Shown here: positions 3,291 through 64,000 of the stretch, one piece after another | How the letters are laid out: each line of letters starts with the position of its first letter | How positions within the stretch are numbered: position 1 is the first letter of the stretch | NCBI GenBank assembly: GCA_900770165.1 | Contig: CAAGJJ010000037.1 | Location: 3,113-67,112, forward strand | From: Clostridia bacterium | GTDB taxonomy: Bacteria > Bacillota > Clostridia > Oscillospirales > Acutalibacteraceae | DNA length: 64,000 bases | Direction of reading: 5' to 3' | Translations under genes and position numbers: made by a program | The notes under the pieces: generated by a model | Told to the model about the DNA's origin: nothing | What the model saw: the letters and a program-made list of their open reading frames with translations, nothing else | The model's database searches: none

Positions 3291-3524
3291 ATGAAAAAGG
3301 TGAAAACAGTTAATGATTTAAAGATGAATGAGTCGGGAGTAGTTTTAAGAATAGGTGGATGCGGAGCACTTAGAAGAAGGATAATAGATATGGGCATTAC
3401 ACCAGGAGCAGTTATAATAATGCGAAAGGTTGCGCCTTTTGGAGATCCTATAGAAATAAACGTAAGAGGTTATGAACTTAGTATTAGAAAATCGGACGCA
3501 AAAGAAATAGTAATAAAAGATTAA
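3291..3524 (+). CDS. feoA: Ferrous iron transport protein A
   Basis: 77-aa FeoA/SH3-like domain directly upstream of feoB. Confidence 0.85.
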   Translation: MKKVKTVNDLKMNESGVVLRIGGCGALRRRIIDMGITPGAVIIMRKVAPFGDPIEINVRGYELSIRKSDAKEIVIKD

Positions 3525-3546
3525 TAATAAAAAGGAGGTGCATTTA

Positions 3547-5784
3547 ATGGCGAGTTTAATAAGAGATAGTATAAGAAATTTTTCAGCTGATAGTGTAACA
3601 AATAAGAAAACTATTAAGTTTGCATTGGCTGGAAACCCTAATTGTGGGAAAACCACGTTGTTTAATAAATTGACAGGAAGTAAACAGTATGTAGGAAATT
3701 GGCCTGGTGTAACTGTGGAAAAAAAGGAAGGTAGAGCTAAGTTTTATGGAAAAAATATTAGCATTTTAGACTTACCAGGGATATATTCATTATCTCCGTA
3801 TTCACCTGAAGAAGTAGTTACTAGAAATTGCATAATAGATGAGGATCTACAGCTGATTATTAATATTGTAGATGCAACAAACATAGAAAGAAATTTATAT
3901 CTTACAACGCAAATAGCAGAGCTTGGGAAGCCTATGGTAATTGCACTTAATATGATAGATCTACTTGAAAAAAGAGGAGATCGTATTGATTATAAAAGAT
4001 TAGAAAGAAAATTAGGAATTCCGGTTGTACCAATTTCTGCAGGTAAGGGTACTGGTATAGATGAATTAATGAAACTTGCTATTAGCTACGCAGAAAAGAA
4101 TCAAATTGTAAATATAAAAAATACATATTCTCCAGATGTTGATGAGGTATTATGCGAGATTGAGAAAGTTTTGGATTCTACAGGTAAAAGTACAAATGCT
4201 AACCAGAGATGGAATGCTGTTAAAGTTTTTGAAGGAGATAGAATAACATTAGAAAAATTTAAATTCACAGAAGCTCGATCTCAAAAAATAAATACTATAA
4301 AAAAGAAAATACCAACCACTAAATATTTAGATAGGGAAATGATAATTGCAGACCAAAGATATAAGTATATATGCAACATTTGCTCTTTAGTGGTGAAAAA
4401 AAGTTTTGGACAAGGACATTTGACAACATCCGATAAAGTAGATAAGATTATTACTAATAGGTTTTTGGCTATACCACTGTTTTTAAGTATGATGCTGCTA
4501 GTCTTCTTTATAACATTTGGACCTATTGGAAACTCTTTAAGGGATAGTGCAGAATTTTTAATAAAAGATGTTTTTGCAGGCATGATTAACAATATACTTA
4601 ATTCTGCAGGGGCTTCACAATGGACTGTAAGCCTAGTAATAGGTGGAATAATAGAAGGTGTTGGTTCTGTTATATCATTTTTCCCACAAATATTAATTTT
4701 GTTCACACTGTTATCAATATTGGAAGACAGTGGCTATATGGCAAGGGCTGCTTTTATAATGGACCAATTATTAAGAAAGATAGGTTTATCGGGTAGAGCA
4801 TTTGTTCCAATGCTAATGGGGTTTGGCTGTACGGTACCAGCAGTTTTAGGAACCAGGACTTTAGAGAGCGAGAAAGACAAAAGATTGACTATTTTAATTA
4901 CACCATTTATGTCTTGTAGCGCAAAGATGCCTGTGTATGCTCTGTTTATTTCAGCTTTTTTTGTTAGTAACCAGGCACTGATAATTTTTTCTATATATTT
5001 GTTAGGAATTATTATAGCAGTTTTATCAGCTTTGCTGTTTAAAAATACGTTATTAAAAGGGGAGCCTGCTCCATTTGTTATGGAACTCCCACCATATAGG
5101 CTACCAACGCCAAGAAGCTTGTGGATACATGTTTGGGAAAGACTTAAAGATTTTTTAACAAAAGCAGGAACTGTATTACTTGCAGCTACAATTGTTATTT
5201 GGTTTTTACAATCATTTGATTTTAAAATGAGAATGGTAGATGATAGTGCAAATAGTATGCTTGCAAGTATTGGAACATTTATAGCTCCAGCATTTACTTT
5301 GTGTGGCTTTGGAGATTGGAGAGCCTCTGTCTCACTAGTAACTGGACTTGTTGCAAAAGAGTCTGTTGTTAGTACAATGGCGATTTTATATAATTCTGGT
5401 GTAGATGCGAACTTGGCTTCAACTTTAGGACAAACGTTTACTCCATTAAGTGCATATTCGTTTATGGTTTTTGTTTTGCTGTATACTCCATGTGTTGCAG
5501 CTTTATCGGCAATACATAAAGAGATGGCCAGTTTAAAATGGACCTCTATAACAATATTGTATCAGCTAGCTGTTGCGTTTTTAGTATCGGCATTTGTATA
5601 TCAAACAGGTTCTTTTATGTCATACATTTTTTCCGGAGGCAGTGTTAAGATTATAGATGTAATTATAGCGATTTTATCTATCTCAATTGTTGCTTGTGTT
5701 ATTTGGATAGAGGTAGGAAAAAGGAAAGATAGTAAAAATATGTGCAGCTCTTGTTCAGGGTGTGCAAATAAATGTAATAGATGA
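3547..5784 (+). CDS. feoB: Ferrous iron transporter B; the tabulated GTG start at 3538 is probably replaced by the ATG at 3547
   Basis: N-terminal G-domain (GNPNCGKTTLFN), polytopic permease, Cys-rich C-tail CSSCSGCANKCNR; RBS aggagg 7 nt before the ATG at 3547. Confidence 0.9.
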   Translation: MASLIRDSIRNFSADSVTNKKTIKFALAGNPNCGKTTLFNKLTGSKQYVGNWPGVTVEKKEGRAKFYGKNISILDLPGIYSLSPYSPEEVVTRNCIIDEDLQLIINIVDATNIERNLYLTTQIAELGKPMVIALNMIDLLEKRGDRIDYKRLERKLGIPVVPISAGKGTGIDELMKLAISYAEKNQIVNIKNTYSPDVDEVLCEIEKVLDSTGKSTNANQRWNAVKVFEGDRITLEKFKFTEARSQKINTIKKKIPTTKYLDREMIIADQRYKYICNICSLVVKKSFGQGHLTTSDKVDKIITNRFLAIPLFLSMMLLVFFITFGPIGNSLRDSAEFLIKDVFAGMINNILNSAGASQWTVSLVIGGIIEGVGSVISFFPQILILFTLLSILEDSGYMARAAFIMDQLLRKIGLSGRAFVPMLMGFGCTVPAVLGTRTLESEKDKRLTILITPFMSCSAKMPVYALFISAFFVSNQALIIFSIYLLGIIIAVLSALLFKNTLLKGEPAPFVMELPPYRLPTPRSLWIHVWERLKDFLTKAGTVLLAATIVIWFLQSFDFKMRMVDDSANSMLASIGTFIAPAFTLCGFGDWRASVSLVTGLVAKESVVSTMAILYNSGVDANLASTLGQTFTPLSAYSFMVFVLLYTPCVAALSAIHKEMASLKWTSITILYQLAVAFLVSAFVYQTGSFMSYIFSGGSVKIIDVIIAILSISIVACVIWIEVGKRKDSKNMCSSCSGCANKCNR

Positions 5785-57528: not shown

Positions 57529-58827
57529 ATGTTGGTTTCTGATTGCCTAAACGTAAACTCTTTAGGTCACCTTACAGTTGGAGAATGCGATACTATAGAC
57601 CTTGTTAAAGAATATGGTACACCATTATATATTTTAGATGAAAATGGTATTAGAATGGCTTGTAGGCTTTATAAAGAAGCTTTTGAAGAGTATTATGAAG
57701 GCAAAGGTTGTCCTTTATATGCAAGCAAAGCATTAAACTGTTTGGAAATATGCAGAATTATTAATAGTGAAAATATGGGATTGGATGTTGTTTCTGGAGG
57801 CGAATTATATACGGCTATACAAGCAGGATTCCCTATGTCGAAAATACATTTTCACGGTAATAATAAAACTTTTGAAGAAATTGAGATGGCTGTGAGTAAT
57901 AATGTTGGGACCATTGTAGTCGACAACTTTGAAGAGCTTAATATAATAAATAATATATCAATGAAGCATAATAAAAATACGTGTGTATCTATTAGGTTAA
58001 CTCCTGGGATAGATGCACATACTCACAAGTTTATAAAAACAGGGCAAATAGATTCAAAATTTGGATTTAATTTTGAAAATGGAGATGCGCTTAAAGCTGT
58101 TAAAATTGCTTTAGATTTACCAAATATTGAACTAAAAGAAGTGCATTGTCATATAGGTTCACAAATATTTGAGCTTGAGCCGTTTGAATTAGCCGCTGAA
58201 ATAACAATGAATTTTATAAAGCAAGTTTTCGATAGTTACAACTATGTTATAAATAATATGAATTTAGGTGGAGGTTTCGGTGTGAGGTATACTGAAGATG
58301 ATGATCCTCCTAAGTTCAAAGATTATGTAAAAAATGTGTCTGAGGTTGTTAAAAGGAAGTCATTAGAATACAAAATACCTGTACCTTATATGTATATTGA
58401 ACCTGGTAGATCAATAGTGGCGGAGGCTGGAATTACTTTATATAAAATTGGAGCTATAAAAGAAATACCTAATGTTAGAACATATGTATCGGTAGATGGA
58501 GGAATGTGTGATAATCCTAGATATGCACTTTATAAATCTAGTTATACTTGCTTAATAGCGAATAAAATGCATATTAATAAGACTAAAAAAGTTACAATTG
58601 CAGGAAAATGCTGTGAGAGTGGAGATTTAATTCAAGAAAATGTTTTGCTTCCAAATCCAGAAAGAGGGGATATTTTAGCAATACTTTCTACTGGAGCATA
58701 TAACTATTCTATGGCGTCTAATTATAATAGAATTCCTAAACCAGCTATAGTTATGGTAAATAATACACGTCATCGTGTAATAGTAAAAAGAGAAACATAC
58801 GAAGATTTAATAAGAAATGATATATAA
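57529..58827 (+). CDS. lysA: Diaminopimelate decarboxylase
   Basis: PLP-fold type III with the HIGSQ and EPGRS motifs. Confidence 0.9.
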   Translation: MLVSDCLNVNSLGHLTVGECDTIDLVKEYGTPLYILDENGIRMACRLYKEAFEEYYEGKGCPLYASKALNCLEICRIINSENMGLDVVSGGELYTAIQAGFPMSKIHFHGNNKTFEEIEMAVSNNVGTIVVDNFEELNIINNISMKHNKNTCVSIRLTPGIDAHTHKFIKTGQIDSKFGFNFENGDALKAVKIALDLPNIELKEVHCHIGSQIFELEPFELAAEITMNFIKQVFDSYNYVINNMNLGGGFGVRYTEDDDPPKFKDYVKNVSEVVKRKSLEYKIPVPYMYIEPGRSIVAEAGITLYKIGAIKEIPNVRTYVSVDGGMCDNPRYALYKSSYTCLIANKMHINKTKKVTIAGKCCESGDLIQENVLLPNPERGDILAILSTGAYNYSMASNYNRIPKPAIVMVNNTRHRVIVKRETYEDLIRNDI

Positions 58828-58829
58828 AA

Positions 58830-58885
58830 AATTCAGGATAAACAATCATTACTTTAACATGATTATATTATCCTGAATTTTTTAA
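58830..58885. terminator. Bidirectional terminator between lysA and the convergent membrane-protein gene
   Basis: Long imperfect hairpin aattcaggataaacaatcat...atgattatattatcctgaatt followed by a T-run. Confidence 0.65.
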
Positions 58886-59526
58886 AATTTAAATAATCCT
58901 GCAAATAATTCATTAAAAATCATATCTATAAAAGAAGCTATTGCAAGAATTATAAATACAAAGCCGCTTCGCATAAAATATATTTTAAAGTTTTTACATT
59001 TATTTGTTAAAATGGTATGCGGTGAGAATTGAGAAATAATTTTTGCAGATAAACTTATTGATTCTTTTGATTCTATTATTATTCCTATCGATGAAATAAA
59101 TACGCCAGGAAGAAGTACTAATATATGAAATATAATACCTTTTAATCCATAGTTTGAATATAAAAAACCTGCAATTAGTCCTAGCCCAAATCCTCTAAAA
59201 AAGGGGATAAATGGAATAAAAAGTATTCCCCATGCTGAAAGTCCCATTAATATTAAAATAGCAGTAAAAATAAAAGATGAAGTGAAAGAAGCTATAAATG
59301 TATCTGTCATAGCTTGTTCAGCTCTTATTTTAAAGTTACTGGCAAATAAAAAATCTAAGTTATCTATAAAGTTATCATCTGAAAATTTTGCACATATAGA
59401 ACCAGTTGTCATTCCAATTAATAAAAACAGCACTAGCAAAGAAACTAGCTTATTTTCTAATATTATTTTTAATATATTTTTACTTTTTCGGTTTAGATTT
59501 GACAATATCTTTTTTTTCATAAACAT
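58882..59526 (-). CDS. spoIIM: Stage II sporulation protein M-like (DUF95) membrane protein
   Basis: 214 aa with the same length and TM layout as SpoIIM; no other family fits. Confidence 0.5.
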   Translation of the reverse strand: MFMKKKILSNLNRKSKNILKIILENKLVSLLVLFLLIGMTTGSICAKFSDDNFIDNLDFLFASNFKIRAEQAMTDTFIASFTSSFIFTAILILMGLSAWGILFIPFIPFFRGFGLGLIAGFLYSNYGLKGIIFHILVLLPGVFISSIGIIIESKESISLSAKIISQFSPHTILTNKCKNFKIYFMRSGFVFIILAIASFIDMIFNELFAGLFKF

Positions 59527-59643
59527 CCTCCTAATATTACAAGAAGCACAAATATTAGCTTCTCATAGGATAATATGCTTTTATGAAAAAAAATATTACC
59601 ATATCTAAGATGATATGGTAACAAGAAGGATATATATGTATTT

Positions 59644-60453
59644 TTAATGTTTAGATAATTCTTTAGAACGTTTAGAACATTTTTCCATTGCAGAAATTAT
59701 ACCATTATAGAAGTTATTTTCTTCTAAAACTTTAAGTGCTTCTACGGTTGTACCTCCAGGAGATGATACCATTTTTATAAGTTCATCTGGAGAAAAACCA
59801 GAAGAGTTTAACATTTTTGCAGTCCCTTCAAGTGTTTTACATATCAAATTTAAAGAACTATTATAATCGATATTATGGATATTTGAAAATTCTAACATTG
59901 CTTTTGCGAGTAAAAATATATATGCAGGGCTGCTACCGTTAATTGCTACAATAGTATCCATATTACTTTCATCAATGATTTCACATACACCGCATGAGTT
60001 GAATATATTATATATTTTATTAAAATCATCGTTATTTACATTAGATGTTTTACAAATAGCAGATGCGCCTTCTCCTAGCAGTAGAGGTGTATTTGGCATT
60101 ACTCTTATTATAGGGCAATTTGAATTAATTTTATTAAGGATATAATCGGTTGTAATTCCAGCTGCTATAGATATTAAGATTTTTTCTTCTGTAATAAAAT
60201 CTTTTATTTCATCTAAGAGTTCTGGGAAGTTTTGTGGCTTAACAGCTAAAAATATATATTTACTTTCAGTTATAACTTGTTTAGAAGAATCTAAAACATT
60301 TAGCCCTAATTTTTTAGAGAATTGAGAACATTTGTTTATGTCTATATCAAAAATATTTATTTCATTTGGATTACATATATTGTTTGTTATAATTCCATTA
60401 ATAATTGCTTTTGCCATATTTCCTATACCGATGAATCCATATATATTATTCAA
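59644..60453 (-). CDS. proC: Pyrroline-5-carboxylate reductase
   Basis: N-terminal Rossmann GFIGIGNMA, 269 aa. Confidence 0.88.
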   Translation of the reverse strand: MNNIYGFIGIGNMAKAIINGIITNNICNPNEINIFDIDINKCSQFSKKLGLNVLDSSKQVITESKYIFLAVKPQNFPELLDEIKDFITEEKILISIAAGITTDYILNKINSNCPIIRVMPNTPLLLGEGASAICKTSNVNNDDFNKIYNIFNSCGVCEIIDESNMDTIVAINGSSPAYIFLLAKAMLEFSNIHNIDYNSSLNLICKTLEGTAKMLNSSGFSPDELIKMVSSPGGTTVEALKVLEENNFYNGIISAMEKCSKRSKELSKH

Positions 60454-60470
60454 TTTGATTTCACATCCTA

Positions 60471-61832
60471 TTAGTCTTCGTTAAGTGCAGCTTGTATCAT
60501 TATTGCACATTCTAAACGCTTTTTTTCAAGCTTGCAAGAAATAGAGTGGGGGATAAGAATACTATTTTCGTATTGCAGATTATTGGCATTACAACCTCCA
60601 CTGCAGTAGAATTTAGCCCAACAATTTTTACACTCTGATTTAGTATATACGTTTGCTTTTGAAAAAACAGATTTTAATTCTGTGTTAAATGTGTTGTCAA
60701 ACAAATTGCCCATTTTCCATTTATCATTACCAACGAACTGATGGCAAGGGAATATGTCTCCAGTTGGGGTTATTGCAATATATTCATTACCACAACCGCA
60801 GCCTCTAAGTCTTTTTATTGCACAAGGACCTTGATTTAAATCTATCATAAAATGAAAAAAGTTAAAAAATTCTTTATTTTTTCTTTTAGAAATAATCGTC
60901 TTTGCCAAATTTTCATATTCTTCAAAAACTCTTGGAAGATCATTTTCTTTTATTGAATAGTCTAGTTTTTCATCTGAAACAACAGGCTCTATAGAAAGTT
61001 GTTCAAAACCTAAATCTACCATATGTAAAACATCTTTTGTAAAGTCTAGATTATTCTTTGTAAAAGTACCTCTTACATAATAATCTTTATCACCTCTAGA
61101 TTCTACAAGCTTTTGATATTTAGGAACTATGGTATCATATGAACCTTTACCATTTGGCGTAATTCTGAGAGAATCGTTTATTTCTTTTCTGCCGTCTAAT
61201 GATAAAACAACATTAGACATTTCTTTATTAATATACTCAATTTTATCATCTGTTAAAAGCAAGCCATTTGTTGTTATTGTGAATCTAAACTTCTTATTAA
61301 ATTTATTTTCAATGCTTCTTGCATAGTTAACTATTTGCTTAACAACATCAAAATTCATGAGTGGTTCGCCACCAAAAAAATCGACTTCTAAATTATGCCT
61401 ATTTTCAGAATTTTCAATTAGAAAATCAATAGCTTTTTTACCAACTTCAAACGGCATTAACATTCTACCTTGTCCAAAATCTCCTTTTGCTGCAAAGCAG
61501 TATTCACATCTAAGGTTACAATCGTGTGCAACATTTAGACACATAGCTTTAATAGGGGAATTTTCCATCATTTTTGTAAACGGTTCATAGTCATCTTTAG
61601 AAAAAAGCTGATTATTTTCATAGAGATTATATAATTCATTGTATGATTCAATTATATCATCTTTGCTGTGTTTTGATTCAAGTATTTTTAAGATATTATC
61701 GTCAATTTCATTCTTTATACTGTCATTTAAAATTTCTAAAATATCATATGATATATCATCTAATATATGAACTGCGCCACTATTTACATCTAGTGCTATG
61801 TTATATCCATTAAGTTTGTATTTATGTATCAT
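60471..61832 (-). CDS. Radical SAM/SPASM thioether-forming maturase of the SCIFF peptide
   Basis: CLNVAHDCNLRCEYC radical-SAM triad, a C-terminal SPASM Cys cluster, and a position directly downstream of the SCIFF gene. Confidence 0.85.
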   Translation of the reverse strand: MIHKYKLNGYNIALDVNSGAVHILDDISYDILEILNDSIKNEIDDNILKILESKHSKDDIIESYNELYNLYENNQLFSKDDYEPFTKMMENSPIKAMCLNVAHDCNLRCEYCFAAKGDFGQGRMLMPFEVGKKAIDFLIENSENRHNLEVDFFGGEPLMNFDVVKQIVNYARSIENKFNKKFRFTITTNGLLLTDDKIEYINKEMSNVVLSLDGRKEINDSLRITPNGKGSYDTIVPKYQKLVESRGDKDYYVRGTFTKNNLDFTKDVLHMVDLGFEQLSIEPVVSDEKLDYSIKENDLPRVFEEYENLAKTIISKRKNKEFFNFFHFMIDLNQGPCAIKRLRGCGCGNEYIAITPTGDIFPCHQFVGNDKWKMGNLFDNTFNTELKSVFSKANVYTKSECKNCWAKFYCSGGCNANNLQYENSILIPHSISCKLEKKRLECAIMIQAALNED

Positions 61833-62007
61833 AAAGGACCTCCGTTAAAATAACAAAATTTAAGGGACAGTTTACTGCCCCTTTACAATTATACAAATTT
61901 AGCAAACAATAAAATATAAGTAAGTTTACAACTTTATGTTTTATAGAACTGCCACCTGCACTTAATTTTGTTGCAGGTGGCAATTTTGCAACCATATTAA
62001 CTAAAAA

Positions 62008-62151
62008 TTAGTTATTTTTCTCACATTTTTGGTTTGCAACAGTGCAAGAAGTTTTACAAGCAGATTGACAAGATGCTTGACATTCTCCGCAACCGCCTTT
62101 TATAGCGCTGTCTTTTAAGTTAGCTTTATTAATAGTTTTAATATGTTTCAA
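62008..62151 (-). CDS. SCIFF ribosomal peptide precursor (six cysteines in forty-five residues), 47 aa, TTG start
   Basis: The minus-strand translation MKHIKTINKANLKDSAIKGGCGECQASCQSACKTSCTVANQKCEKNN matches the SCIFF consensus almost residue for residue; RBS ggagg 7 nt upstream; absent from the ORF track. Confidence 0.88.
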   Translation of the reverse strand: MKHIKTINKANLKDSAIKGGCGECQASCQSACKTSCTVANQKCEKNN

Positions 62152-62226
62152 AACATTTCCTCCTTCGACTTAATATCTTTCTATTTATTATAATATATAA
62201 TTTAAAAAATTCCAATACCCAATAAA

Positions 62227-62628
62227 CTATCTTTTAGATTTTTTATTAACTCCAGCTATTCCTCCTATTGCACCCATCAATAACATTAATGTCAATTTTA
62301 CTAATACTAATGTTGAAATTTCTCCGTTAGAAATCATAAGTCCTGCAATAAATACAACTGAAAACATAACAAAACCTGCAATCATGCCCCAAAAAAGTCC
62401 ATTGCTTTTTATAATTCTTGCAGTTATATATCCGCTTATAAAAGCACCTAATGCTATGGCAAACATAGTAAGAGGGGTAATAACTGTTGCAGAAATATTT
62501 TGCGATTTTACAAATAAAAAAGATGATATTACTAAAGTTAATATAGAGAAAAATGTACCCATAATAGTACCCGATAAAATTGCTTTAACGGCTTTTGTTA
62601 AATTATTTTCTGATTTATCGTATCTCAA
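62227..62628 (-). CDS. Small four-TM membrane protein
   Basis: 133 aa, hydrophobic; sits between yajC and the SCIFF gene. Confidence 0.6.
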   Translation of the reverse strand: MRYDKSENNLTKAVKAILSGTIMGTFFSILTLVISSFLFVKSQNISATVITPLTMFAIALGAFISGYITARIIKSNGLFWGMIAGFVMFSVVFIAGLMISNGEISTLVLVKLTLMLLMGAIGGIAGVNKKSKR

Positions 62629-62687
62629 TTAATATACCCCCAAAGAATATGTTTGTAATAAATATTCCTTAGGGGATAAGATTATTC

Positions 62688-63020
62688 TTATTTTGTTTTT
62701 TCGTTTACATTAGCATTGTTTTTACCAGCAATAGCCCAATTTTTTATATGTAGTTTGCTTCTATCTATGCTAGTTTCAATAATAACAGAATCAGAATCAT
62801 TTTTTATGCTTACAATCTTACCAACAATTCCACCAATAGTAGTAATTTCATCGCCTATTTGTAAGCTTTTTCTCATTTCATCTTCTTGTTTTTTCTTTTT
62901 TTGCTGTGGTCTCATTAAAACAAAGTATAAACCACCGAATATAACTGCATATAATAATACTGTAATCCAAAGTTGATTTCCTTCCATACCTAAAGAGAAA
63001 GCTAATTGATTTAATGTCAT
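62688..63020 (-). CDS. yajC: Preprotein translocase subunit YajC
   Basis: Single TM helix followed by the YajC motif LQIGDEITTIGGIVGKIVSI. Confidence 0.88.
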   Translation of the reverse strand: MTLNQLAFSLGMEGNQLWITVLLYAVIFGGLYFVLMRPQQKKKKQEDEMRKSLQIGDEITTIGGIVGKIVSIKNDSDSVIIETSIDRSKLHIKNWAIAGKNNANVNEKTK

Positions 63021-63089
63021 CTGAAATTTGCACCTCCAAAACTAATAGTATATATTATATCAGTAAATTTTTAATTATGCAAGATATAT

Positions 63090-64000
63090 TTAAATTCTAA
63101 GGCCCAATATATCTTTATATTTGTTATAAAATGGCATGAAGTTGCCTTCATCCATTGAATTTCTAATTCTTTCAAGCAGAGTGTTGTAGAAGTAAATATT
63201 ATGCATTACACATAATCTCATTGCAAGCATTTCTCCACTCTTAAATAAATGCCTAATGTAAGCTCTTGAATATTGCTGACATACGGGACAATCACAATTT
63301 TCATCTAAAGGTTTGTCATCTAATTCATATTTTTTATTAAGCATATTTCTACAGCCTTCCCATGTGAATACATGGCCGTGCCTTGCATTTCTACTTGGCA
63401 TAACGCAATCGAATAGGTCAACACCTCTTAATACAGATTCTAATATATTAACAGGTGTACCTACACCCATTAGATATCTTATTTTATTGTATGGCATGTA
63501 AGGATCTACTGTTTCTATTATTCTGTACATTTCATCAGCAGGTTCACCTACGGCTAAACCTCCAATTGCGTATCCATCTAAATCAAGTTCTCTAATTTGT
63601 TTCATATGTTCAATTCGTATATCTTCAAATGTACTTCCTTGATTTATACCAAAAAGCATTTGTTGTTTATTTATTGTATCATCAAGGGAATTAAGTCTGT
63701 CCATCTCGGCCTTACATCTTTTTAACCATCTTACGGTTCTAGCGCAAGAATTTTTTGTATAGTTATATTCTGCAGGGTTTTCAATACATTCATCAAATGC
63801 CATAGCTATTGTTGAAGCAAGATTAGATTGTATTTGCATACTTTCTTCAGGTCCCATAAATATTTTTCGACCATCTATGTGAGAAGAAAAAGTGACTCCA
63901 CTTTCTTCTATATTTCTTAATTTAGATAGAGAAAATACTTGAAATCCGCCACTATCTGTTAAAATTGGACCATTAAAACCAGTGAATTTTTGTAAGCCAC
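63090..64000 (-). CDS. tgt: Queuine tRNA-ribosyltransferase (3' part; the gene continues past the window end)
   Basis: Zinc-site motif CDCPVCQQYSRAYIRHL, the LAVGEP motif, and an open frame running to position 64000. Confidence 0.88.
   Translation of the reverse strand, partial: GLQKFTGFNGPILTDSGGFQVFSLSKLRNIEESGVTFSSHIDGRKIFMGPEESMQIQSNLASTIAMAFDECIENPAEYNYTKNSCARTVRWLKRCKAEMDRLNSLDDTINKQQMLFGINQGSTFEDIRIEHMKQIRELDLDGYAIGGLAVGEPADEMYRIIETVDPYMPYNKIRYLMGVGTPVNILESVLRGVDLFDCVMPSRNARHGHVFTWEGCRNMLNKKYELDDKPLDENCDCPVCQQYSRAYIRHLFKSGEMLAMRLCVMHNIYFYNTLLERIRNSMDEGNFMPFYNKYKDILGLRI

Follow-up and report, generated by a model that had tools for sequence, protein, structure and literature searches.

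Does the short minus-strand reading frame beside a radical-SAM gene in this DNA encode a SCIFF (six-cysteine ranthipeptide) precursor, and how would such a precursor be expressed, matured and put to use? SCIFF genes with an adjoining cross-linking radical-SAM enzyme are found in most Clostridia, and SCIFF and its maturase ScfB are said to have been defined bioinformatically in 2011 by Haft and Basu. The window analysed here, by which we mean the whole stretch of 64,000 nucleotides, comes from a low-GC host (30.5%), an uncultured member of Clostridia, and its closest relatives among the matches listed are labelled Eubacteriales, Oscillospiraceae or Ruminococcus. Taking biosynthesis, attenuated expression and a regulatory role together, we consider it very probable that the locus is a canonical SCIFF pair.

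The SCIFF precursor and its predicted maturase

The two genes and their ribosome-binding sites are as follows.

62159..62163, minus strand: ribosome-binding site of scfA, GGAGG, with a 7-nt spacer to the TTG, as read from the sequence; almost every homologous locus has a GGAGG-like site there
62008..62151, minus strand: scfA, SCIFF precursor gene, 47 codons plus stop, TTG start (TIGR03973, PF13165)
61839..61843, minus strand: ribosome-binding site of scfB, GGAGG, separated by 6 nt from the ATG and conserved among the aligned relatives
60471..61832, minus strand: scfB, predicted SCIFF maturase, 453 aa (TIGR03974), with RRE, radical-SAM and SPASM regions

The sequence-only reading had proposed a 47-aa frame with a TTG start, a GGAGG 7 nt upstream and six cysteines in SCIFF spacing, and all of these features were verified in the sequence. 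Translation of the minus strand of 62008-62151 gives (L/M)KHIKTINKANLKDSAIKGGCGECQASCQSACKTSCTVANQKCEKNN followed by a stop, with the TTG at 62151-62149 and the stop codon at 62010-62008. The cysteines lie at residues 21, 24, 28, 32, 36 and 43, in the SCIFF pattern C-x2-C-x3-C-x3-C-x3-C-x6-C with a Gly-Gly pair (G19-G20) before the first of them, and threonines are found at 34 and 37. The peptide matches TIGR03973 at 85.3 bits, where the cut-off is 50 (E = 1.9e-24, model positions 1-43 of 43) and the Pfam SCIFF model PF13165 at 87.1 bits against a cut-off of 27 (E = 6.7e-25, model positions 1-44 of 44). In a comparison of 75 peptides, with the window peptide among them, 72 fit the core motif. 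The presumed donor Cys32 and the acceptor candidates Thr34 and Thr37 are all present in the window peptide, each being at least 97% conserved among the 75 homologues. By homology to CteA, whose leader and core numbering is given in PMC6231123, the leader would comprise residues ~1-18 and the core residues ~19-47. The SCIFF core is near-invariant, with a mean top-residue frequency of 0.94 and 20 distinct cores among 75 species, and the core found in the window is the same sequence in 18 other species.

The stop codon of scfA lies exactly 175 nt upstream of the scfB ATG (61832) on the same strand, in agreement with the earlier estimate of about 175 bp. ScfB scores 736.6 bits against TIGR03974, 312 bits above the cut-off of 425, contains the Pfam domains Radical_SAM, Fer4_12 and SPASM (27.4 bits; cut-off 21.5), and matches the crystallised maturase CteB (PDB 5WGG) over its full length (E = 4e-176 over residues 1-448, 56.5% identity). 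Using the list of CteB Fe-S ligands in PMC10177961, we found that 10 of 10 ligand cysteines align. The radical-SAM motif CX3CX2C reads C105-NLR-C109-EY-C112 and corresponds to CteB C104, C108 and C111; C345, C363 and C414, the ligands of auxiliary cluster I (AuxI) with its open fourth site, correspond to C344, C362 and C413; and the AuxII ligands C401, C404, C410 and C433 correspond to C400, C403, C409 and C432. Cys347 of the window enzyme is a serine in CteB and is not a cluster ligand. The N-terminal region is more diverged, and residues 1-90 nevertheless align unbroken, at 43% identity, to the RRE region of CteB, which points to a leader-binding RRE domain of the kind described in PMC6231123. 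The CX3CX2C motif and Cys-rich C-terminal SPASM domain noted earlier from the letters of the gene are real features of the enzyme. Together, both HMMs and the CteB match support the idea that a SCIFF gene adjoins a thioether-forming radical-SAM/SPASM maturase, and ScfB is predicted to form such cross-links.

Two other readings of the pair were weighed. The 47-codon frame could be a chance ORF or an untranslated, decayed pseudogene; it is short, its TTG start is rare (3 of the 75 homologues, and common to the closest clade), and it is missing from the metagenome gene calls of 9 out of 10 related contigs that were examined. Such omission arises because the gene is short, and this reading, to which we give practically no chance, is effectively refuted by the rest of the evidence: two independent SCIFF models are matched end to end at E ~1e-24, and a GGAGG stands at ideal spacing. 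Furthermore, the ORF, the TTG and the ribosome-binding site are all preserved at 83-90% ScfB identity, among relatives that show synonymous changes in the coding region, and the identity of the core across the 18 other species argues the same way. No frame-disrupting difference was found, the DNA of 61780-62260 being 100% identical to two independent public metagenome contigs. There is only a very slight likelihood that the enzyme is something other than a true SCIFF maturase (a ScfB-like orphan, a PapB-type multi-crosslink ranthipeptide synthase, or a QhpD-like enzyme or sactisynthase) that lies near the peptide by chance. Strong matches to the exception model for ScfB-like orphans, NF040492 'not_ScfB' (592.2 bits), and to the NCBIfam models of PapB (277 bits) and QhpD (274 bits), homologous radical-SAM/SPASM enzymes that likewise form non-alpha thioethers, would favour it, but all of them fall under the curated cut-offs (855, 340 and 453, respectively), whereas the TIGR03974 score is far above its own, and a cognate SCIFF adjoins the enzyme, as in 77 of the 80 best-matching homologous loci. 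PapA (freyrasin) carries six CX3D motifs that are cross-linked at the Asp C-beta; the window peptide, by contrast, has no PapA-type CX3D repeats. The identity of the two genes, their family membership and the conservation of the catalytic residues are thus established, and the locus is a genuine, entirely typical SCIFF copy.

Gene order, promoter and spacer hairpins

Further features around the pair bear on its expression.

62688..63020, minus strand: yajC, Sec translocon accessory subunit (TIGR00739, 68.8 bits; PF02699, 87.5 bits)
62227..62628, minus strand: small membrane protein of the TIGR04086/DUF3792 family (TIGR04086, 71 bits, cut-off 30; PF12670, 64.6 bits)
62187..62215, minus strand: putative sigma-70-type promoter of SCIFF (TTGGAA, 17 nt, TATAAT; 10 of 12 consensus matches)
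61949..61983, minus strand: hairpin 1, 12-bp stem UUGCCACCUGCA / UGCAGGUGGCAG closing an 11-nt loop, within ~110 nt of extra spacer
61847..61883, minus strand: hairpin 2, intrinsic-terminator-like (AAGGGGCAG uaaa CUGUCCCUU, then AAAUUUUGUUAUUUU), from the terminator scan
59594..60453, minus strand: proC (59644-60453; TIGR00112, 247.6 bits) and a 3' terminator-like hairpin from the terminator scan

Synteny was assessed in the best 80 of at least 598 matches, a sample biased toward the window's relatives. There, 77 of 80 related genomes or species have SCIFF immediately 5' to scfB, 39 of 72 sampled species have the DUF3792 gene immediately 5' to SCIFF, 27 of 65 have yajC no more than 1.7 kb upstream of it (24 of 65 have both yajC and the DUF3792 gene), and 15 of 61 have tgt near SCIFF. 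The order yajC, membrane protein, SCIFF, maturase, which had been taken as the conserved arrangement in Clostridia, is therefore present in the window and common (~37-54%) but not universal, and only the SCIFF-scfB pair is near-universal. The genes of the neighbourhood in the window (queA, tgt, yajC, the DUF3792 gene, proC, a SpoIIM-like gene, lysA and lon) are housekeeping genes, and the window's SCIFF neighbourhood holds no leader protease or exporter. The gene tgt, listed as a 255-aa ORF, was considered as a truncated gene or pseudogene and this was rejected, as its frame runs without a stop up to the window's edge, and the gene is intact, at 376 aa, in a public contig. On the other side of the pair, proC starts 17 nt past the scfB stop, and scfB and proC also abut in two related loci (L084 and L088). 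The strong terminator-like hairpin with a T8 tail that the scan placed downstream of proC, at 59623-59594, probably marks where the scfB transcription unit ends.

The −35 core and the TATAAT of the SCIFF promoter are kept in all five of the five diverged relatives aligned, and the rest of the intergenic region is variable. Across the family, a promoter of this type occurs in the 100 nt preceding SCIFF at 51 of 75 loci, compared with 11.3 expected from shuffles, suggesting that SCIFF usually has a promoter of its own.

The spacer between SCIFF and scfB contains two hairpins. The ~110 nt of extra spacer that holds hairpin 1 is found only in the window's species and in a sister lineage of 90% identity, and one compensatory change, A-U to G-C, is seen between the two. 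In the sister lineage hairpin 1 is followed by a U-tract, UAUAUUUUUU, and so looks like a terminator there, whereas the tail in the window is degraded and lacks a good U-tract. In nine distinct related loci, aligned or inspected, hairpin 2 has a variable loop and a stem that differs only by a single G-U/A-U variant, so that its structure is supported by conservation and not by covariation. Covariation support for the spacer hairpins is weak, consisting of the one compensatory pair of hairpin 1 in two lineages. Terminator-like hairpins recur in SCIFF-scfB spacers family-wide, on the sense strand in 44 of 73 and on the antisense strand in 6 of 73, against 1.9 in shuffles. A search of 58000-64000 against Rfam with E up to 1 matched no RNA family anywhere in that interval, the spacer included. 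The hairpins are not a dispersed repeat, with no further copies beyond chance in the 64-kb window, and a 57-aa ORF that crosses the spacer (61822-61995, minus strand) was rejected as spurious, as the sister lineage (90%) has ACG in place of its ATG as well as frame-breaking indels; it is also absent from relatives with spacers of 63-94 nt.

Transcription would most likely start at the promoter of SCIFF itself, most transcripts ending at the hairpin or hairpins of the 175-nt spacer and a minority reading through into scfB-proC. Such attenuation between SCIFF and scfB, which we infer from the conserved promoter and terminator-like sequences, would yield far more precursor message than enzyme message. 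The hairpins could act otherwise, either as full terminators with a separate scfB promoter within the spacer, or as stabilisers of the 3' end of a processed SCIFF mRNA or the 5' end of the scfB mRNA. In the window a TATAAT immediately precedes hairpin 2 and belongs to a conserved stretch that the sister lineage shares (GCTAAATT-TGTATAA), and the poor U-tract of hairpin 1 in the window would also fit a role other than attenuation. However, the sister lineage reads TATAAC at the putative −10, no acceptable −35 was found on inspection, and relatives with spacers of 63-64 nt hold only hairpin 2 and the ribosome-binding site, with no room for a promoter; an internal scfB promoter was not adopted on these grounds, although a weak one (TATAAT at ~61894-61889) is conceivable. 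The gap of ~18 nt between hairpin 2 and the scfB ribosome-binding site leaves no room for a separate promoter there. Furthermore, the strong preference of hairpin plus T-tail for the sense strand is consistent with termination. We regard these other roles of the hairpins as unlikely, and attenuation is the reading we retain.

An architecture of promoter, SCIFF, sense terminator and scfB would usually apply across the family, and it is the family-level feature that this analysis adds; no description of it for SCIFF was found in the literature cited here. In other RiPP operons, for example after lantibiotic structural genes, a leaky terminator follows the precursor gene. The SCIFF locus resembles such lantibiotic-type operons in having its own promoter, a short precursor gene, a hairpin and then enzyme genes with no separate promoter, and differs from them in the window lineage, where the ~110 nt of extra spacer gives two tandem hairpins.

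Maturation by analogy with known systems

The window pair resembles CteA/CteB (thermocellin, Clostridium thermocellum; PDB 5WGG and 5WHY), with the RRE, radical-SAM and SPASM regions aligned end to end and with Cys32, Thr34 and Thr37 of the peptide at the residue numbers reported for CteA. Relative to CteA, the window peptide reads QAS where QTS would follow the second Cys, contains a VAN...K variant and ends in an EKNN tail. Judged against the homologues, these differences between the peptides appear to be normal family variation, and nothing in them points to a different chemistry. Tte1186a/Tte1186 of Caldanaerobacter subterraneus was the first SCIFF pair to be reconstituted and gave one Cys32-Thr37 thioether in vitro (PMC8326336). 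As described, Tte1186 is alike at the level of the family and has the Cys ligand pattern of CteB (PMC10177961), although its source, unlike the window's host, is a thermophile, and of a different order. Se-EXAFS on Tte1186 revealed binding of the cross-linking residue to AuxI (PMC10177961). The position of the CteA cross-link is disputed, being Thr37 in vitro and Thr34 in E. coli (PMC8326336, PMC8172795).

By analogy with these homologues, the 47-aa precursor would be translated from the TTG, and its leader (residues ~1-18, MKHIKTIN...) would dock as a β-strand on the N-terminal RRE of ScfB. The [4Fe-4S] cluster at the CX3CX2C motif would then reductively cleave SAM to give a 5'-deoxyadenosyl radical, and the thiolate of Cys32, held at the open iron site of SPASM auxiliary cluster I, would be converted into a Cys-S-to-Thr-C-gamma thioether, with the second electron leaving through the auxiliary clusters. 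Both the chemistry and the site of the cross-link in the window pair are presumably those of the homologues.

Biological role and significance

To our knowledge, Clostridium beijerinckii and C. ljungdahlii have the only SCIFF systems with knock-out phenotypes. Both carry the same kind of precursor and radical-SAM pair as the window, but they belong to Clostridiales sensu stricto, a different order from the window lineage. As related in reviews (PMC8102284, PMC8326336), Chen et al. 2020 (Biotechnol J 15:e2000136) tied SCIFF to the regulation of quorum sensing and sporulation; according to the account in one of them, sporulation genes went down and the agr locus went up in the knock-out (PMC8102284). 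The view of the sequence-only reading that the native function is unknown is thus somewhat dated, going by these reviews (PMC8102284, PMC8326336), although it stands for the native mature structure and the receptor. By analogy with the two knock-outs, SCIFF is most likely a regulatory or signalling peptide that affects quorum-sensing and sporulation programmes, and an antibiotic role is unlikely.

The missing nearby protease or exporter in the window is awkward for a secreted signal. SCIFF might instead be cell-autonomous, intracellular or membrane-associated, as a redox or metal-binding peptide or as a partner of the DUF3792 protein or Sec, which we judge somewhat doubtful. The near-invariance of the core across orders is atypical of secreted RiPPs and pheromones, which diversify, and the housekeeping neighbours from queA to lon and the position of the DUF3792 gene immediately upstream of SCIFF in over half of the sampled species would also fit a cell-autonomous peptide. 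A comparative pangenomics preprint reports no more than one ranthipeptide cluster per species, which points in the same direction (bioRxiv 10.1101/2025.02.12.637840). Recent surveys also find such clusters consistently across clostridial orders. On the other hand, the only genetic data, as the reviews present them, indicate effects of the quorum-sensing type; the GG that closes the leader looks like a double-glycine cleavage site, on which a distal transporter could act; and synteny with housekeeping genes is no evidence of function. A more elaborate form of the cell-autonomous idea, in which the modified peptide would work with the DUF3792/TIGR04086 protein and possibly YajC/Sec, the ratio of precursor to enzyme would be set high by a conserved leaky terminator and the window lineage would have a second tandem terminator, seems to us quite improbable. 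The window tests the idea of a DUF3792 partner no better than thousands of other SCIFF loci. A regulatory peptide of the quorum-sensing and sporulation type remains the role we prefer.

This copy of SCIFF adds nothing new to knowledge of the family. An identical peptide already has entries in NCBI and ENA, and NCBI, whose pipeline names the family automatically, lists the other members of its cluster as 'six-cysteine ranthipeptide SCIFF', so the earlier concern that the gene would otherwise go unannotated holds for metagenome gene calls and does not extend to these databases. The frequency with which callers drop SCIFF justifies an HMM-guided rescue of small ORFs beside ScfB. Since the core is shared with 18 other species and the host is uncultured, the locus is a poor experimental entry point, and the question of how the mature peptide acts is better addressed in cultured relatives with the same core, of which Clostridium methylpentosum DSM 5476 is one; the core of Caproiciproducens is near-identical. 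For the family, the layout of promoter, SCIFF, sense terminator and scfB offers a testable model of how the levels of precursor and enzyme may be set.

The SCIFF precursor and its maturase

The SCIFF peptide gene (scfA) and its radical-SAM/SPASM maturase gene, scfB, are arranged with their neighbours and expression signals as follows.

62688-63020, minus strand: yajC, upstream of SCIFF
62227-62628, minus strand: membrane protein (DUF3792), 133 aa, upstream of SCIFF
62215-62187, minus strand: predicted SCIFF promoter, TTGGAA-17-TATAAT, within the 75-nt DUF3792-SCIFF gap
62163-62159, minus strand: SCIFF ribosome-binding site (RBS), GGAGG, 7 nt from the start codon
62151-62149, minus strand: SCIFF start codon, TTG
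62008-62151, minus strand: SCIFF ORF, 47 codons plus stop, product (M)KHIKTINKANLKDSAIKGGCGECQASCQSACKTSCTVANQKCEKNN
61983-61949, minus strand: hairpin 1 of the SCIFF-scfB spacer, 12 bp
61883-61862, minus strand: hairpin 2, AAGGGGCAG-uaaa-CUGUCCCUU, then AAAUUUUGUUAUUUU, terminator-like in the terminator scan
61843-61839, minus strand: scfB RBS, GGAGG
60471-61832, minus strand: scfB, 453-aa ORF with C105-x3-C109-x2-C112 and a Cys-rich C-terminus
59594-60453, minus strand: region of proC, which starts 17 nt past the scfB stop
59623-59594, minus strand: strong terminator after proC, 12-bp hairpin plus T8

The ORF, start codon, RBS and 175-nt gap described in the sequence-only reading were all read in the sequence, the distance from the SCIFF stop to the scfB ATG (61832) being exactly 175 nt, and so were the CX3CX2C motif and Cys-rich C-terminus of the maturase. 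The HMM searches proposed there bear it out: the peptide matches TIGR03973 at 85.3 bits (cut-off 50; model positions 1-43 of 43) and Pfam PF13165 (SCIFF) at 87.1 bits (cut-off 27), and the enzyme matches the SCIFF-maturase model TIGR03974 at 736.6 bits (cut-off 425). The enzyme falls under the cut-off (592 versus 855) of NF040492, the NCBI exception model setting ScfB-like orphans apart, and is sub-threshold for PapB, QhpD, nif11-type and other SPASM maturase models. Two independent public metagenome contigs carry the locus DNA at 100% identity over 481 nt with the frame intact, and therefore sequencing error causes no frame problem in the SCIFF region; a frame-disrupting difference in the real sequence is what the reading had named as refuting it.

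Among solved structures, the top match of the maturase is CteB of Clostridium thermocellum (5WGG/5WHY; E = 4e-176, residues 1-448), with 56.5% identity over the alignment. All ten [4Fe-4S]-ligating cysteines of CteB, in three clusters (PMC10177961), align to cysteines in the window ScfB: C105, C109 and C112 for the RS cluster (CteB C104, C108, C111), C345, C363 and C414 for AuxI (C344, C362, C413), and C401, C404, C410 and C433 for AuxII (C400, C403, C409, C432). Furthermore, its N-terminal 90 residues are 43% identical to the RRE domain of CteB.

For comparison, one genome per species was scanned with an ScfB alignment, and the best 80 of at least 598 matches, biased towards the window's relatives, were taken from Oscillospirales-type, Ruminococcus, Lachnospiraceae and other Clostridia. 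In 77 of these best 80 loci the gene directly preceding scfB, on the same strand, is SCIFF; the remaining three have little or no upstream DNA to inspect. In the 75 peptides of this best-80 sample, the core (residues 19-44) is nearly frozen, with a mean top-residue frequency of 0.94 and 20 distinct cores; the core of the window peptide recurs unchanged in 18 other species, among them Clostridium methylpentosum DSM 5476. Cys32, Thr34 and Thr37 are all present in the window peptide, and each is conserved in 97% or more of those compared. Start codons are ATG in 63, GTG in 4 and TTG in 3 of the 75; TTG, rare family-wide, is common to the window's closest clade (ScfB 83-99% identical). One locus, L064 (~3756-3899; uncultured Clostridia bacterium BRZ_N__bin59), has a degenerate SCIFF, MKHIETIKTVDLKKSAVYGGCGECQASCQTASKDTNTVTNQECEHNK, lacking the fourth and fifth cysteines, donor Cys32 included, next to an apparently intact ScfB (57% identity to the window's); this peptide may be decaying or cross-linked in another way. 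A pattern scan for Cys-rich peptides in the window surfaced a 755-aa ORF (3517-5781, plus strand) with a Cys-rich stretch, ...NMCSSCSGCANKCNR, that is unrelated to SCIFF.

Predicted promoter and spacer hairpins

The predicted promoter's -35 core and -10 element are conserved in five relatives in which the surrounding intergenic sequence has diverged, and 51 of 75 best-80 loci have such a promoter in the 100 nt before SCIFF, against 11.3 expected from shuffles. The window spacer folds far more stably than dinucleotide shuffles (z = -4.2), as do spacers family-wide (median z = -3.4; z < -2 in 66 of 73 best-80 loci). Hairpin 2 is kept in 9/9 distinct related loci examined, with an invariant stem and variable loop, and 44 of 73 best-80 spacers hold a hairpin followed by a T-rich tail in the sense direction (antisense 6; shuffled sets 1.9 ± 1.3). 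Only about 18 nt separate the hairpin 2 tail from the scfB RBS, and relatives with 63-64-nt spacers hold hairpin and RBS and nothing else; read-through is therefore the most likely source of scfB expression. In L031 and L036, SCIFF abuts scfB (spacers of 0 and 8 nt), which leaves no room for a terminator, and these loci are therefore exceptions to the promoter-SCIFF-terminator-scfB layout.

Between SCIFF and the conserved terminator, an extra ~110 nt (61884-61995, minus strand), restricted to the species of the window and its sister lineage at 90% identity (correspondingly in clade contigs L083, L087 and L089), contains hairpin 1 together with a GCTAAATT-TGTATAA block that is conserved. Between window and sister lineage, one base pair of hairpin 1 has changed in a compensatory way (A-U to G-C), and the hairpin has a clear U-tract in the latter. 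The segment has no second copy within the 64-kb window and no Rfam match. A separate locus, L065, has a 235-nt spacer from SCIFF (3625-3756) to scfB (4001) that is far more structured than all others sampled (predicted folding energy -114 kcal/mol, z = -11.8) and could be an inserted repeat or structured RNA.

Gene neighbourhood and annotation

The yajC-DUF3792-SCIFF-scfB order, put forward in the sequence-only reading as conserved, is present in the window, but iterated profiles over the best-80 sample place DUF3792 directly before SCIFF in 39 of 72 loci, yajC nearby in 27 of 65, and both in 24 of 65. The order is therefore frequent, and only the SCIFF-scfB pair is near-universal. With the same profiles and sample, tgt occurs in 15 of 61 loci, and the gene after scfB is proC in 10 and spoIIM-like in 15 of 68. 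In the window, proC lies so close to scfB (the two abut in L084 and L088), with a terminator following, that this housekeeping proline-biosynthesis gene appears to share the scfB transcript in the window's clade. After proC, the SpoIIM-like gene (58882-59526) is sub-threshold for TIGR02831 and above the Pfam SpoIIM cut-off. A pseudogene reading of tgt (63090-64000, 255-aa ORF) was rejected: its frame stays open as far as base 63998 and runs off the window end, and in the matching public contig tgt is 376 aa long and follows queA.

The claim that SCIFF would otherwise go unannotated holds for generic gene callers, not for HMM-aware pipelines. The metagenome gene tables of 9 of 10 clade contigs leave it uncalled with the ORF intact in the DNA (L081 5682-5825, L082 1192-1335, L083 2684-2827, L084 1735-1875, L086 2769-2906, L087 1184-1327, L088 1017-1157, L089 520-663, L090 1182-1325), the caller probably being defeated by short length and the TTG start; L085 alone lists it, with the start placed at a GTG one codon before the TTG. 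The exact peptide and maturase sequences are, however, already in NCBI and ENA, and NCBI names members of the peptide's 90%-identity cluster 'six-cysteine ranthipeptide SCIFF'. The sequence-only reading identified the locus correctly; it is an ordinary example, already known and catalogued, of a RiPP family that is itself well known.

Proposed mechanism and biological role

As read from the sequence, the promoter would drive SCIFF, followed by one or two leaky terminators, scfB-proC and the final terminator. By homology with CteB and the Caldanaerobacter subterraneus maturase Tte1186, the SCIFF leader would add as a β-strand to the ScfB RRE (PMC6231123), and the RS cluster would produce a 5'-deoxyadenosyl radical. 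The open iron of AuxI may bind the cross-linking cysteine, as Se-EXAFS shows for Tte1186 (PMC10177961), and a thioether would form from Cys32-S to a Thr C-γ. Cys32, Thr34 and Thr37 are implicated in the thioether of the precursors Tte1186a and CteA, the acceptor, Thr37 or Thr34, being disputed (PMC8326336, PMC8172795).

The earlier statement that the function is still unknown is partly dated. According to two reviews (PMC8102284, PMC8326336), which place SCIFF under quorum sensing, disruption of the C. beijerinckii pair lowered sporulation genes and raised agr (Chen et al., 2020). A 2026 preprint (bioRxiv 10.1101/2025.02.12.637840) reports that ranthipeptide clusters are conserved over clostridial orders, with at most one per species. 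The window neighbourhood consists of housekeeping genes (queA, tgt, yajC, DUF3792, proC, spoIIM-like, lysA, engB, lon) and holds no leader protease or exporter gene; together with a core frozen across the sampled species, this therefore keeps an intracellular or membrane-based role for SCIFF alive as a rival.
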